Source of the DNA: Gemmatimonadales bacterium
Lineage (GTDB): Bacteria > Gemmatimonadota > Gemmatimonadetes > Gemmatimonadales > GWC2-71-9
NCBI GenBank assembly: GCA_041615815.1
Contig: JBFJCP010000008.1
Coordinates: forward strand, 63,154-127,153
Reading direction: 5' to 3'
Length of the DNA stretch: 64,000 bases
Below are positions 15,865 to 18,800 of the stretch, piece by piece (within the stretch, counting starts at the first letter, position 1; every line of letters begins with the position of its first letter). The position numbers were made by a program.

Positions 15865-18800
15865 AACTGAGCTACCTGGCCCGGGCGGAGAATTATAATC
15901 GCCTCGTCCGCACCCCGCTCCCCCTAACCCGATTCCACGTCGTCGTCATCGTACGGCGGTAGCTCGGTGGCGTCCGGGTAGCGCTCCCGCACTCGCTCGA
16001 TTACCTCTCGGGCCCGCTCCGGGTCTTTTTTGACGGTTCGGTAGATCTCCTCCAACCGGATGGCGGCATTGATCTCGACTTGTCGCGAGGCTCGGTGATC
16101 CAGATGGCTCTCGAGCAGTCGGATCGTGTCGTCCAGACTTGGCCGGATGTTGGGTGGCGGTCCGTCACCGGCACCCGAGACGAAGATATGCGCCGCCCAC
16201 TCGCCAAAGGGCTCGAGCACGTGCTCCACGAGAAGATCCCAACTCAACCATAAGATCCCGAACACGCCGGCGGCGACGAACCACCGGGTGTCCTCGCGAA
16301 AGACGAGACCACTCAAACCGGAGAAGATGGTCGCGGCGCCGAACACGATTCGGAGCACGCGGCTGACGCTGATCGGCGATTCGTTCTTGCGCATCCGTTC
16401 AGTGGAAAGATGGGCCCCCGGGAAGCACGAAGCCATGGGGAGACGAGGTGCGACGAGCGGTGGCCCGGAGTACTATTGACCCGATGATGGAAGCGGCCCC
16501 GCTCGCGGGACGACGCATCGTAGTGACCCGGCCCGAGGGAGATGCCCAACATCTGGCAGCCCGCCTCCGCGCCCTGGGTGCCACGCCGATCGTCGTTCCT
16601 GCAATCCGGATCGAGTTTACCGACCCCCCGGAGCTCCGGGAGGCACTCGGTCGGCTCGCGGCCTACGACTGGATCGTCTTCACGAGCCGAAACGGCGTGA
16701 ACGCCGTATTCCGGCTCGTGCGGAGCCTCGAGGGACCCCGGGTGGCCGCCATTGGTCCGGTCACCGCAGCGGCCCTCAGGGAACGGGGCGCGTCGCCCGA
16801 TGTGGTACCAGGAGAATTCGTCGCAGAGGCCGTAGCTGCCGCGCTGGGCGACGTGCGCGGGGAGCATATCTTGCTGCCGCGCGCCGACCTGGCCCGTCCC
16901 ACGCTCGCCCAGCTGTTGCGCGAGGGCGGGGCAACCGTGGACGCGGTTACCGCCTACCACACCCACGACGCCAGCTCCGAGCGTCCCGACCTGAGCAACG
17001 TGGACGCCGTGACGTTCACCAGCTCGTCCACCGTCAGGGGATTCTTGACCGGAGGTCCCCTACCCCTCGGTGCCAAAGTCGTCTGCATCGGGCCCGTCAC
17101 CGCTGATACCGCGCGGGAATTGGGACTCGCGGTCCACCATGTCGCCGAACGCTACACCGAAGACGGACTCGTCACGGCGCTCGTGCACGCATTCGCTCCG
17201 AGCCCCGAGGCCCTGCCGTGACGGAACACCGGCAGTGCGTACGCTACCTGTTCTTGCGGATCCAGTCCGCCTGGCGGCGGTTGCCCTCGGACACACAGGT
17301 CCACCACAAAGAAGAGTTCGTGGCGACGCTCATGGGTTTTCGTGGCAAGCTCTTGCTCAGGAGCTACAGCCTCATGGGCACCCGCGGAGATTGCGATCTA
17401 CTCCTGTGGCACGTCTCCGACCGCCTCGAGACGCTCCAGGCGTTGGAGACCGCCATCTTCTCGACGGCGCTCGGTGGATATCTCGAGATCGCCCACAGCT
17501 ACTTGGGCCTCACCAAGCGCTCGGAGTACGAATTCCCAGAGCTACCGGATGCCGCCAGTCGGACCGTGATTCGCCCAGCGGACGCGCGCTACCTGTTCGT
17601 CTACCCCTTTGTCAAGCGGCGTGCCTGGTACGCGCTCCCGTTCGTCGAGCGCCAGGAGGCGATGCAAGACCACGTCCGGATCGGCCGGAAATACCCGTCC
17701 ATTCGTATCAACACGACGTACTCGTTTGGCCTCGACGATCAAGAGTTCGTCGTCGTCTTCGAAGGCGACGATCCGGGAGAGTTCTTGGACCTCGTGATGG
17801 AGCTCCGCGGCAGTCCGGCCTCGGCGTACACGGAGCGCGACACCCCCGTGTTCACGTGCATCCAGATGTCACTGTACGACACGTTGGACTCCTTAGGGGG
17901 GGCTGCGCCGGAGCAGCGGGCAGCCGAGGGGAAGGACGAAGCCGACGGTTTTACCGCCGTCGGCTCGATCGCTGACCTTCCGCCGGGGGGCTGCAAGCGT
18001 GTCTACTTGGGCGCGGACGCGGTTGCGCTGTTCAACGTGGGCGGCACGCTCTACGCCATCGCGGACCGCTGTAGCCACGGGCGAGCCTCGCTCTCCGAGG
18101 GAACGGTGGATGAGGCAAGGAACACCCTGCAATGTCCTTGGCACGGTGGACGCTTCGATCTCGCAACCGGACAGCCCACGGCAGGCCCGCCTTCCGCACC
18201 GATCAAAACCTTCCAGGTCAGGGTAAACGGAGAGCACATCTTTGTCCGGTGACCGGTTGCTCAACGCTTGTCGGGGGCAACCGGTGGACGTGACACCCGT
18301 GTGGTTCATGCGTCAGGCCGGTCGATATCTCCCGGAGTATCGCGCGATCCGCGAGCACCACTCGATTCTCGAGATTTGTCACGATCCCACACTGGCTGCG
18401 GAGGTGTCGCTCCAGCCAGTGACACGTTTCGAACCGGACGCCGCCATCGTCTTCGCTGACATCTTGCTGCCGTTCGAGCCGTGGGGGCTCGGACTGTCCT
18501 TCCACCCCGGTGAAGGCCCCGTCCTGGACCACCCCATCCGCACCGCAGACCACGTGGAGGGCCTGCGGGTGCTGGATCCGCACACCGACCTCGGGTTTGT
18601 GCTGGAAACCGTGCGCCTTGTGAGTCAGGAACTCGGCCACCGGGTACCGGTGATCGGATTCGCTGGCGCGCCGTTCACGCTGGCGTCGTATGCGATCGAG
18701 GGAGGTGCATCCCGTCAGTTCATCGAGACGAAGCGCTTCATGTACGGACAGCCGGAGGCGTGGCACGCGCTTCTGTCGACCTTGGCAGCAACCGTGGGGC

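Follow-up and report, generated by a model that had tools for sequence, protein, structure and literature searches.

The haem operon in our window, the whole stretch of 64,000 nucleotides that was analysed, holds a single reading frame, chdC::rieske, in which a coproheme decarboxylase (ChdC) is joined to a Rieske [2Fe-2S] domain. ChdC catalyses the final step of the coproporphyrin-dependent haem pathway, and free H2O2 is kept very low in cells. Judging from the cluster ligands, the conservation and a predicted docking, the Rieske domain seems to work together with the active site of ChdC as its redox partner. In the reading that we prefer, at a probability of roughly 40%, its cluster would be an electron inlet, with O2 activated at the coproheme iron instead of free H2O2 being used, the direction of this flow being purely one that we infer. 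The features are as follows.

16448..17221, + strand: hemD, uroporphyrinogen-III synthase, the upstream gene (Pfam HEM4, 1.2e-60)
17218..18252, + strand: chdC::rieske, a single ORF of 344 aa with a GTG start and its stop at 18250-18252
17218..17904, + strand: ChdC domain, aa 1-229 (Pfam Chlor_dismutase and alignment to ChdCs)
17602-17604, + strand: Tyr129 codon, placed by alignment to C. diphtheriae Y135
17614-17616, + strand: Lys133 codon, within the ChdC domain
17671-17673, + strand: codon of the proximal His152, placed by alignment to C. diphtheriae H158
17905..17946, + strand: linker, aa 230-243, poorly conserved and predicted to be disordered
17947..18249, + strand: Rieske [2Fe-2S] domain of ferredoxin type, aa 244-344 (Pfam Rieske, 7e-19)
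18070-18072, 18076-18078, 18133-18135 and 18142-18144, + strand: codons of the cluster ligands Cys285, His287, Cys306 and His309, respectively
18242..19267, + strand: hemE, uroporphyrinogen decarboxylase (Pfam URO-D, 7.4e-128; TIGR01464 above cut-off)
19264..20373, + strand: short flavoprotein of HemY/CgoX type, 369 aa (two Pfam Amino_oxidase stretches; TIGR00562)

The fused gene lies between hemD and the hemE-hemY pair. The TGA of hemD and the GTG of chdC::rieske overlap as GTGA, and the TTG start of hemE at 18242 gives an 11-nt overlap at the other end, with an alternative in-frame TTG start at 18257. The reading frame is free of internal stops, and the opposite strand carries many. In our own Pfam search the protein matched Chlor_dismutase (9.4e-57, aa 31-216), Rieske (7e-19, aa 247-332) and Rieske_2 (2.2e-13, aa 245-343); an earlier note on this DNA had given close values for the first two (1.8e-57 and 1.9e-19), and its description of a two-domain single ORF in a haem operon is borne out by this search and by the flanking genes. 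The fusion is not an artefact, since both domains are present throughout the best 120 database homologues, which are about 345 aa long and share 60-73% identity; with the two in one frame in these 120 and in the 192 sequences that were gathered, an error of sequencing or assembly, or a frameshift, was ruled out.

By its residues, the first domain appears to be a real ChdC with the normal catalytic kit, that is, the proximal His152, Tyr129 beside propionate 2, and Lys133. The match to Chlor_dismutase (PF06778) covers profile positions 5-188 of 189, and the Foldseek comparison with ChdC structures gave an E-value of 2e-16 and a TM-score of 0.74, normalised by target. The closest solved relatives are the ChdCs of S. 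coelicolor and C. diphtheriae, and in the profile alignment with the latter Tyr129, which sits in V-Y-P-F, falls on Y135 and His152 on H158 (in 'EH', chain position 160 being His158). Y129, H152, K133 and W137 are invariant across 23 fused and unfused sequences, as is the proximal His in 120 fused homologues; the catalytic residues had gone unchecked in the earlier note, and Tyr129 and His152 prove to be kept. Asn165, placed by its spacing from the proximal His, lies 13 places past His152, at what we take to be the distal Arg position of true chlorite dismutases (Clds; His160/Arg173 in N. defluvii). Passages of a review set the catalytic Tyr next to propionate 2 and treat a Tyr at this site as a mark of ChdC, the Clds having Ile (PMC7611857). 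A true chlorite dismutase was rejected as the identity of the domain, given the catalytic Tyr of ChdC, the HemQ families as top NCBIfam models and the location in a haem operon.

Scores against both curated HemQ equivalogs fall below the cut-off (HemQ_actino NF042928, 121.2 bits against 235; firmicute NF008913, 80.9 bits against 253), because of which we place this ChdC in a separate clade of the family, outside the two characterised ones, a form in which the pathway is well established in diderm phyla. It shares with the actinobacterial ChdCs (C. diphtheriae 6xub/6xuc, S. coelicolor 9miq) the fold and family, the proximal His, the catalytic Tyr, the following Lys and the place at the end of the pathway, but these enzymes are only about 24-28% identical to it in fold alignments, have no extra domain and were studied with H2O2 as the oxidant. 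Their distal base, His118 in C. diphtheriae, aligns with Glu108 here, in a variable column, and the alignment contains no conserved His in the inter-domain loop of the fused forms or of the unfused ChdCs of the same phylum. Compared with their nearest unfused relatives, which have the same residues, the fused forms display no active-site change of their own.

The protein is probably the organism's only terminal haem synthase, both sole and needed, because it is the single Chlor_dismutase-family member encoded in the source genome (G000, 95.7% complete), where profile searches found neither HemF (PF01218) nor HemJ (PF03653), nor a true HemN, the best TIGR00538 match reaching 176.8 bits against a cut-off of 325. 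Present in the same genome are hemE, one ferrochelatase and the HemY-type oxidase, the short gene of the operon being its only protoporphyrinogen/coproporphyrinogen-oxidase-like gene. This flavoprotein is missing about 100 middle residues: against B. subtilis 3i6d, residues 7-85 align with chain positions 7-91 and residues 122-359 with 227-461, and the whole-protein TIGR00562 score is 99.2 bits for a cut-off of 97.85. Short HemY-like genes, which encode 340-369 aa and skip the central part of the Pfam profile, occur in the operon of the window and at 5 of 10 further loci from the phylum. The ferrochelatases that adjoin the fusion in this phylum are also short (305-323 aa), and because of this shortness they would be without the C-terminal cluster extension, so that ChdC would bear the only cluster of the pathway.

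The fusion was described earlier as patchy (3 of 31 genomes) and turns out to be far commoner. Full-length copies (from query residue 2 or 3 to 342 or 344, no stops) were found in 40 of the 401 sampled genomes of the phylum, counting the source genome and one unpublished genome (G181); 38 of these holders belong to the source organism's own family, and the others are in family f5 of another order (2/2). The fusion is also present at 44 of 80 loci from Chloroflexota and Armatimonadota, and at the loci examined in these phyla and in its own it nearly always sits in haem operons. Across the three phyla it appears to be old, maintained and under purifying selection. The ChdC tree groups 23 of the 26 fused representatives together in a single clade (SH-aLRT 88); at least three changes between the fused and unfused states are needed, and well-supported branches force only one, so independent origins are not forced and the tree is compatible with a single origin of the fusion. 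Most ChdCs of these phyla are without a Rieske domain: the fusion is demonstrable in only 9 of the 172 ChdC-bearing genomes among 401 sampled Chloroflexota, and in another species of the genus (G346) the corresponding place in the operon is taken by an unfused ChdC. Because of these unfused enzymes, the Rieske domain is not generally required for ChdC. The split form, a ChdC with a separate Rieske gene adjoining it, was not seen in three ChdC-only genomes with both matches listed (G223, G178 and G288), where the two lie 150 kb apart or on different contigs, no systematic search for it having been made.

In the fused proteins themselves, the cluster is in all likelihood functional, because the C-H-C-H ligands (Cys285, His287, Cys306 and His309) are present in 192/192 sequences and the mean identity of the Rieske domain (0.64) is near that of the ChdC domain (0.69), with the linker at 0.21; on this measure the one domain appears to be as conserved as the other. 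The linker is 14-53 aa long in the same set (median 16), and in the monomer model (pTM 0.83) its pLDDT is below 50 for aa 230-239. The sequence relatives of the domain further suggest a low-potential ferredoxin type, BphF/CarAc-like, and not the high-potential bc1/arsenite-oxidase class. Its best families and structures are HcaC (through NCBIfam models of HcaC type), BphF, CarAc and TodB, and the top solved relatives of aa 244-344 in a profile search (4e-25 to 3e-21) are led by BphF (4.3e-25) and CarAc (2.3e-24), whereas Rieske proteins of bc1/b6f type match far more weakly (3fou and 1nyk, about 3e-4, the T. thermophilus Rieske protein likewise about 3e-4). The motifs are C-[TSP]-H-[GA]-R and C-P-W-H-x-[GA]-x-F, and a second Cys pair is absent. 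High-potential Rieske forms have an extra Cys pair, which makes a disulfide, and Ser/Tyr. BphF is named a low-potential Rieske ferredoxin, owing to absent hydrogen bonds to the cluster, in the passages on it in PMC11638306. These best relatives (BphF 2e4p/1fqt, CarAc 1vck, TodB 3dqy, HcaC) share the C-x-H...C-x-x-H ligands; the ferredoxins of ring-hydroxylating oxygenases are, however, free-standing carriers of about 105-115 aa which are reduced by an FAD reductase of their own and supply a non-haem iron oxygenase, whereas in our protein the domain forms part of a haem enzyme. The alpha subunit of a Rieske oxygenase was rejected as an identity, the protein ending directly after the Rieske domain without a catalytic domain.

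A complex was predicted from aa 1-229 and aa 240-344, along with three controls. The ChdC and Rieske parts reached a docking score of 0.63 and the best control 0.00, and the mark that the former reaches is also reached by 116 of 157 solved complexes as against 2 of 215 mismatched pairs. Runs shared at least 89% of their contacts, with a pLDDT of at least 89 for the partner. Structure and profile searches returned no solved chain spanning both domains, which makes it unlikely that the model was reproducing a structure it had already met. The predicted interface takes in residues 289-291 and 307-309, hence both cluster loops and the ligand His309, and on the other side ChdC residues 29-39, 122-124 and 216-221, which are not known haem ligands; 15 of its 26 residues are at least 90% conserved, compared with 139 of 344 overall. 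The prediction thereby supports a docked Rieske domain whose cluster-binding loops face the ChdC domain.

How ChdC obtains its oxidant in cells is still debated, and the fusion would be a defined protein in which a reduced cluster plus O2 can be tested against H2O2. The earlier note was right that it bears on this question: passages of the review PMC7611857 call the oxidant only 'most probably' H2O2, list open questions and mention that FMN can also start the reaction. If the cluster is an electron inlet, it would pass electrons into the bound coproheme iron, and the ferric coproheme would be reduced and bind O2, after which a second electron could give a ferric-hydroperoxo/Compound I species made in situ. 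For each of the two decarboxylations, O2 + 2 e- + 2 H+ would take the place of one free H2O2, and the radical chemistry of Tyr129 would thereafter follow the course known from other ChdCs. With its roughly 15 residues, the flexible linker could let the Rieske domain swing between an electron donor and the ChdC domain. Haem synthesis would then be freed from its dependence on scarce free H2O2, and the last coproporphyrin-dependent step would not strictly need H2O2 as its oxidant. In haem oxygenases and in the P450 peroxide shunt, one and the same activated oxygen species can be reached either from O2 with two electrons or from H2O2, and haem oxygenase uses its haem as substrate and cofactor alike, just as ChdC does with coproheme. 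IsdG belongs to the same alpha+beta barrel superfamily, according to one part of PMC7611857. The likeness to haem oxygenase, IsdG and P450 is an analogy of mechanism only, with no sequence relation to the Rieske fusion.

Several results count against an electron inlet: a donor gene was not found, most ChdCs are unfused, no active-site change goes with the fusion, and the predicted contacts are not at known haem ligands. The classical partner of Rieske ferredoxins is a BphA4-type FAD reductase (Pfam Reductase_C). This family (PF14759), the one reductase type surveyed across genomes, occurs in 104 of the 401 phylum genomes, and among the 40 fusion holders only in the source genome, where the gene is isolated on another contig and unlinked to the fusion; with co-occurrence in 1 of 40 holders, such a reductase was dismissed as the partner. 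No ferredoxin or flavodoxin reductase was found among the neighbouring ORFs scanned at the Chloroflexota/Armatimonadota loci (111) and at those of the same phylum (92). The oxygen context, by contrast, speaks for an inlet: at 3 of 10 loci from the phylum, cytochrome oxidase genes adjoin the operon.

The earlier note had taken the Rieske domain for an electron outlet, in which both two-electron oxidations of the propionates would be driven from coproheme through the cluster to an external acceptor, with neither H2O2 nor O2 at the haem. The redox partnership contained in this proposal is supported by the 192/192 ligands, the conservation and the docking (0.63 against 0.00), but the direction is not: the domain is apparently of the low-potential ferredoxin class and not of the bc1/arsenite-oxidase class, for which reason an outlet is chemically unlikely, and from established haem chemistry we infer that an oxidised low-potential cluster could not generate a tyrosyl radical or Compound I. 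A cluster of this kind carries reductant, and electrons entering to activate O2 agree with it better. That the oxidant is not settled in the passages of PMC7611857, and that an oxygen-independent ChdC is still sought in Bacillaceae (part of PMC10965808), would favour an outlet along with the conserved, docking cluster; the neighbouring ORFs scanned, however, include no partner for the fusion of membrane, quinone or cytochrome type. Moreover, an AhbD-like radical-SAM gene, which matches the model of anaerobic haem b synthase best (439-463 bits for a cut-off of 500), adjoins the fusion in 4 of 15 Chloroflexota/Armatimonadota loci. Fusion and neighbour form the pattern of an aerobic/anaerobic enzyme pair, which favours the inlet with O2 and in which an outlet-type ChdC would leave the anaerobic enzyme redundant, and altogether we hold an outlet to be improbable. 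Much the same improbability attaches to a relay within the pathway, where the Rieske domain would take electrons from the FAD of the adjoining HemY/CgoX-type oxidase and dispose of them or give them to the coproheme site, coupling the six-electron oxidation of coproporphyrinogen to the decarboxylations without release of H2O2. The short HemY-like form that accompanies the fusion, and is the only HemY-type gene of the source genome, would fit, but holders from the Armatimonadota/Chloroflexota set have a full-length HemY (L020, 456 aa; L042, 588 aa), which shows that the short form is not tied to the fusion.

It is unlikely, but worth weighing, that the cluster here senses the state of iron, Fe-S or redox and controls the last haem step accordingly, or stabilises the protein, with no part in catalysis. 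The [2Fe-2S] clusters of some ferrochelatases, which are not known to have a role, would be a parallel. Many ferrochelatases bear such a cluster, according to passages of PMC8529089, and the shortness of those by the fusion would leave the pathway's only cluster on ChdC; a BphA4-type reductase does not accompany the fusion, and unfused ChdCs work without a cluster. His/Cys ligation of Rieske type, homology to the ferredoxin class and docking cluster tip first are, on the other hand, hallmarks of electron transfer domains, and invariant docking residues at the cluster loops would be superfluous in a sensor. We think it quite unlikely that the cluster serves for one-electron housekeeping, reducing or re-oxidising the haem iron or stray radicals while H2O2 stays the oxidant. 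It might take over coproheme in the ferrous form as the ferrochelatase delivers it, remove off-pathway tyrosyl or Compound II species arising from excess H2O2, or set the iron state for product release. At 9 of 15 Chloroflexota/Armatimonadota loci the ferrochelatase gene directly follows the fusion downstream, excess H2O2 yields new species in C. diphtheriae ChdC (PMC9310987), and docking and conservation support this role as they do the electron inlet, from which it is computationally indistinguishable; yet it needs the same donor, and unfused ChdCs do without the cluster.

The earlier note held the fusion to be new, which is true of publications but less so of databases. Our literature search found no published description of a ChdC-Rieske fusion, and the words 'fusion', 'fused' and 'Rieske' are all absent from the review PMC7611857; sequence databases already label both domains (JGI product names). 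The passages on 'Rieske' in PMC10060970 concern an unrelated Streptomyces protein and not a ChdC fusion. The Dailey 2017 MMBR review, the main survey of the distribution of the coproporphyrin-dependent pathway, lay outside the search and may mention the fusion. Among known systems, HemH-HemQ of Cutibacterium acnes is likewise a natural fusion of ChdC with a part of the same pathway (passages of PMC8529089), but its partner is the preceding enzyme, ferrochelatase, which suggests substrate hand-off, whereas here it is a redox cofactor domain. The [2Fe-2S] ferrochelatases, described in the same passages, also carry a cluster on a late enzyme of haem synthesis; theirs is Cys-ligated and on C-terminal or insertion motifs, unlike the Rieske domain on ChdC.

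In a broader and still more tentative form of the electron-inlet reading, ChdC::Rieske would be a coproheme decarboxylase driven by reductant and O2, making its own activated oxygen with no need of free H2O2; unfused ChdCs may likewise use a separate donor, and a triple-fusion enzyme may close a hybrid route from siroheme through coproheme to haem b. Such ChdC-Rieske-AhbA/AhbB triple fusions occur in Chloroflexota, the genomes that bear them being G403, G457, G469, G523 and G682, and point to hybrid siroheme/coproheme routes.

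The gene chdC::rieske has the coordinates, domains and operon reported in the earlier note, as confirmed by the reading of the open frame, by Pfam and NCBIfam matches and by the flanking genes. Two features of the window are concerned:

17218-18252, + strand, chdC::rieske, one open frame of 344 codons with a GTG start
19264-20373, + strand, short HemY/CgoX-type flavoprotein gene, conserved form (340-369 aa)

The strand opposite 17218-18252 is interrupted by stops. The gene is tightly packed between hemD, whose TGA overlaps its GTG start (GTGA), and hemE, which starts with TTG at 18242 or 18257 and is followed by the HemY-type flavoprotein gene. 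Pfam places Chlor_dismutase at aa 31-216 (9.4e-57), Rieske at aa 247-332 (7e-19) and Rieske_2 at aa 245-343 (2.2e-13). Among NCBIfam models, the ChdC part matches best to a pair named 'hydrogen peroxide-dependent heme synthase' (HemQ), with both scores under the equivalog cut-offs (121 bits vs 235 and 81 vs 253), and the Rieske part to aromatic dioxygenase ferredoxin subunits (HcaC-type, AndAb).

The fusion is real, widespread and maintained by selection. Both domains are present in every one of the 120 top-ranking homologues in the databases (about 345 aa, at 60-73% identity), which are Gemmatimonadota MAGs wherever a source is named. Their records go under the name 'chlorite dismutase family protein' or 'Rieske 2Fe-2S domain-containing protein', and JGI gives both together, so that databases already tag the two domains, as the earlier note had suspected in allowing for a fusion recorded there without a paper. 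In a six-frame search the full-length fusion was found in 40 of 401 phylum genomes, counting G000 (the genome containing the window) and one unpublished genome, G181; 38 holders belong to the window's own family and the others are 2/2 genomes of one family in another order, while the remaining phylum genomes have unfused ChdCs of three kinds (45-51%, 36-38% and about 30% identity) or no ChdC. Further clusters with the full-length fusion, at 43% identity, came from a search among 1.84 billion representatives, and scanning GTDB genomes with one of these sequences yielded 80 loci. A complete fusion ORF was present at 44, by record title in Armatimonadota and Chloroflexota (Anaerolineae, Roseiflexaceae, Chloroflexia, Caldilineaceae, Phototrophicaceae, Ktedonobacterales and Dehalococcoidia), and unfused ChdCs at 33, by title mostly in Nitrospirota, with others in Methylomirabilota and in single contigs of Nitrospina and Thermaerobacter. 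A ChdC (E <= 1e-20) occurs in 172 of 401 sampled Chloroflexota genomes, a count that takes in six unpublished genomes with ChdC-only matches; the two-domain fusion is present in 5 of the 172 and a three-part fusion in at least 4 more.

In a ChdC-domain tree of 98 representatives, 23 of 26 fused forms fall in one clade (SH-aLRT 88), and those of Gemmatimonadota group together with good support (99), nested within the Chloroflexota forms; a single origin of the fusion followed by transfer is possible on this tree. In G346, a genome of the window's genus, the hemD-X-hemE slot holds an unfused 229-aa ChdC (L105:6265-6954) with 28-30% identity to the window's ChdC domain, which looks as if, within the genus, one type of ChdC had been exchanged for another at the same site. 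We found no description of a ChdC-Rieske fusion in full-text searches of papers other than subscription papers and the main pathway review, nor is it mentioned in the superfamily review PMC7611857, and it is apparently undescribed. Cutibacterium acnes, according to PMC8529089, has a ChdC fused to ferrochelatase instead of a Rieske partner.

The catalytic residues, left unchecked in the earlier note, are kept: in a profile alignment with solved ChdCs, the proximal His158 and the catalytic Tyr135 of C. diphtheriae ChdC correspond to His152 and Tyr129, which, together with Lys133 and Trp137, are invariant in 23 relatives, fused and unfused. The catalytic Tyr is described as essential in ChdCs and as isoleucine in chlorite dismutases (review PMC7611857). 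The actinobacterial distal His, which deprotonates H2O2, aligns to a variable column (Glu108 in the fusion), and no conserved counterpart was found in the loop, in fused forms or in the phylum's unfused ChdCs; as the unfused proteins lack it too, its absence is no mark of the fusion. Fold, ligand, catalytic Tyr and context assign the ChdC part to the ChdC family, and it is placed outside the two characterised ChdC clades because both equivalog scores are too low and the actinobacterial distal His is missing. The organism seems to rely on the coproporphyrin route, the fusion being its last enzyme, since G000 (4.19 Mb in 73 contigs; 95.7% complete) has a single Chlor_dismutase-family match, chdC::rieske, no HemF or HemJ was found in it, its HemN candidates are radical-SAM matches far under the model cut-off, and the operon's short HemY-like gene is its sole oxidase of that type. 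The single ferrochelatase lies on a different contig. The fusion is the sole Chlor_dismutase gene in three holders of other lineages too.

The Rieske ligands Cys285, His287, Cys306 and His309 are kept in 192/192 fused sequences, whose mean pairwise identity is 0.69 in the ChdC part, 0.64 in the Rieske part and 0.21 in the linker (14-53 residues, predicted disordered). The nearest solved relatives of the Rieske domain are BphF, CarAc, TodB and naphthalene dioxygenase ferredoxin (profile E 4e-25 to 3e-19), with respiratory Rieske proteins matching far more weakly. High-potential Rieske forms have a disulfide, Ser and Tyr. The motifs of the fusion, C-[TSP]-H-[GA]-R and C-P-W-H-x-[GA]-x-F, are without a second cysteine pair, and by ligands and homology the domain is assigned to the ferredoxin-type Rieske class. 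BphF is a low-potential Rieske ferredoxin, owing to absent hydrogen bonds to the cluster (PMC11638306).

AlphaFold models the whole protein with a mean pLDDT of 86 and a pTM of 0.83; known structures matched the ChdC part only in the fold search, and no solved chain covering both domains appeared in the structure searches. When aa 1-229 were predicted in complex with aa 240-344, haem and the 2Fe-2S cluster included, the score was 0.63 (runs 0.50, 0.65, 0.63), and the best of three controls scored 0.00. The mark reached by the two domains was also reached by 116/157 solved complexes and 2/215 mismatched pairs, counts that are rough given the custom alignment and the ligands. At least 89% of contacts were common to the runs, and partner pLDDT was at least 89. 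The modelled interface involves residues 289-291 and 307-309 on the Rieske side, that is both cluster-binding loops with ligand His309, and residues 29-39, 122-124 and 216-221 on the ChdC side; within the fused family, conservation is 90% or more at 15 of its 26 residues, compared with 139 of 344 overall. The complex model supports binding of the Rieske domain to the ChdC domain, cluster loops first.

In the known ChdC reaction a strong oxidant is required at the haem iron: Compound I gives rise to a Tyr radical, and CO2 and two electrons leave each propionate (PMC7611857). The earlier note had read the Rieske domain as an electron outlet that would free ChdC from H2O2. A ferredoxin-class cluster, however, is a mild one-electron carrier that, oxidised, cannot replace Compound I, so the outlet is chemically hard to sustain and we regard it as improbable. 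With a probability of roughly 0.4, we infer instead that electrons pass through the cluster into the coproheme iron: the cluster would feed electrons to the iron, O2 would bind, and a second electron would give a hydroperoxo/Compound I species identical to that made directly by H2O2. Electrons to iron plus O2 giving an H2O2-equivalent species is the logic of P450s and haem oxygenases. This electron entry is favoured by the ferredoxin class of the domain, by the modelled cluster-first docking with a swinging linker, and by a report that ferrous HemQ reacts with O2. It is also favoured by an AhbD-like radical-SAM gene adjoining the fusion in 4 of 15 Chloroflexota/Armatimonadota loci, which suggests an aerobic/anaerobic pair.

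Against electron entry, no donor was found: ferredoxin-type Rieske domains are usually paired with a reductase, but the fusion's is without that partner, the classical Rieske-ferredoxin reductase family turning up in only 1 of 40 fusion holders of the phylum sample, and no ferredoxin/flavodoxin reductase was found among 203 neighbouring ORFs scanned. Electron entry is also weakened in that most ChdCs have no Rieske domain and that the active site of the fused forms shows nothing distinctive. Of the other readings, that the cluster is a sensor or regulator is rather unlikely, one-electron housekeeping by the cluster, with H2O2 still the oxidant, seems to us quite unlikely, and a relay from the neighbouring flavoprotein to the Rieske domain has, in our estimation, a slim chance of being correct.

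Ferrochelatase comes directly after the fusion in 9 of the 15 Chloroflexota/Armatimonadota loci; most of these have hemA, hemC, hemD and hemB downstream, and one has hemE and hemY upstream. The usual order at ten further loci of Gemmatimonadota is hemD, fusion, hemE, sometimes ferrochelatase, and the short HemY-like gene, also found at:

L095:2973-4061
L097:4888-5970
L099:3788-4861
L102:8978-10000
L104:8041-9135

Aligned to B. subtilis HemY (3i6d; query 7-85 on chain 7-91, query 122-359 on chain 227-461), the short protein is without about 100 middle residues; a relative, G134, has a full-length HemY-type copy nearby besides the short one. The radical SAM/SPASM genes adjoining the fusion in four Chloroflexota loci (L017:8342-9457, L039:8224-9375, L042:4717-5946, L053:8243-9445) match the AhbD (anaerobic haem b synthase) model best, at 439-463 bits vs a cut-off of 500, and may be oxygen-independent counterparts of ChdC in a coproporphyrin-pathway operon. 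At three loci of Gemmatimonadota, COX1, COX2, COX3 and a UbiA-family prenyltransferase gene, which may encode haem O synthase, adjoin the haem operon with the fusion, in these cytochrome c oxidase regions:

L100:8634-11191
L101:7535-12364
L102:1811-3700

Three-part fusions of 736-861 aa join ChdC and a Rieske domain to both halves of siroheme decarboxylase (protein P0123 and the following loci):

L055:1180-3555 (Ktedonobacterales)
L135:705-3260
L136:2473-5058
L137:907-3345
L138:1036-3324

The L055 tail scores 238 bits for AhbA and 234 bits for AhbB, both over the cut-offs, and the three-part fusions suggest a hybrid pathway in which siroheme is converted via coproheme to haem b, with ChdC in place of AhbD at the last step. 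G000 also encodes an AhbD-like radical SAM/SPASM protein (C10:21565-22899; 290 bits, sub-cut-off) with a C-terminal PCP_red domain; the Usp protein of the upstream gene (19535-21562, L133) has PCP_red too, as has a metagenomic ChdC, P0130, at its N-terminus, and PCP_red may be a tetrapyrrole-handling module. Other odd architectures (proteins P0225, P0265 and P0261; loci L139:947-3274 and L140:1951-3213) include long ORFs that end in ChdC and have no Pfam match ahead of it, which may be over-extended, Peptidase_M48 joined to ChdC (474 aa), ChdC joined to DUF1802 (397 aa), and a 362-aa Planctomycetota protein consisting of three Rieske domains.
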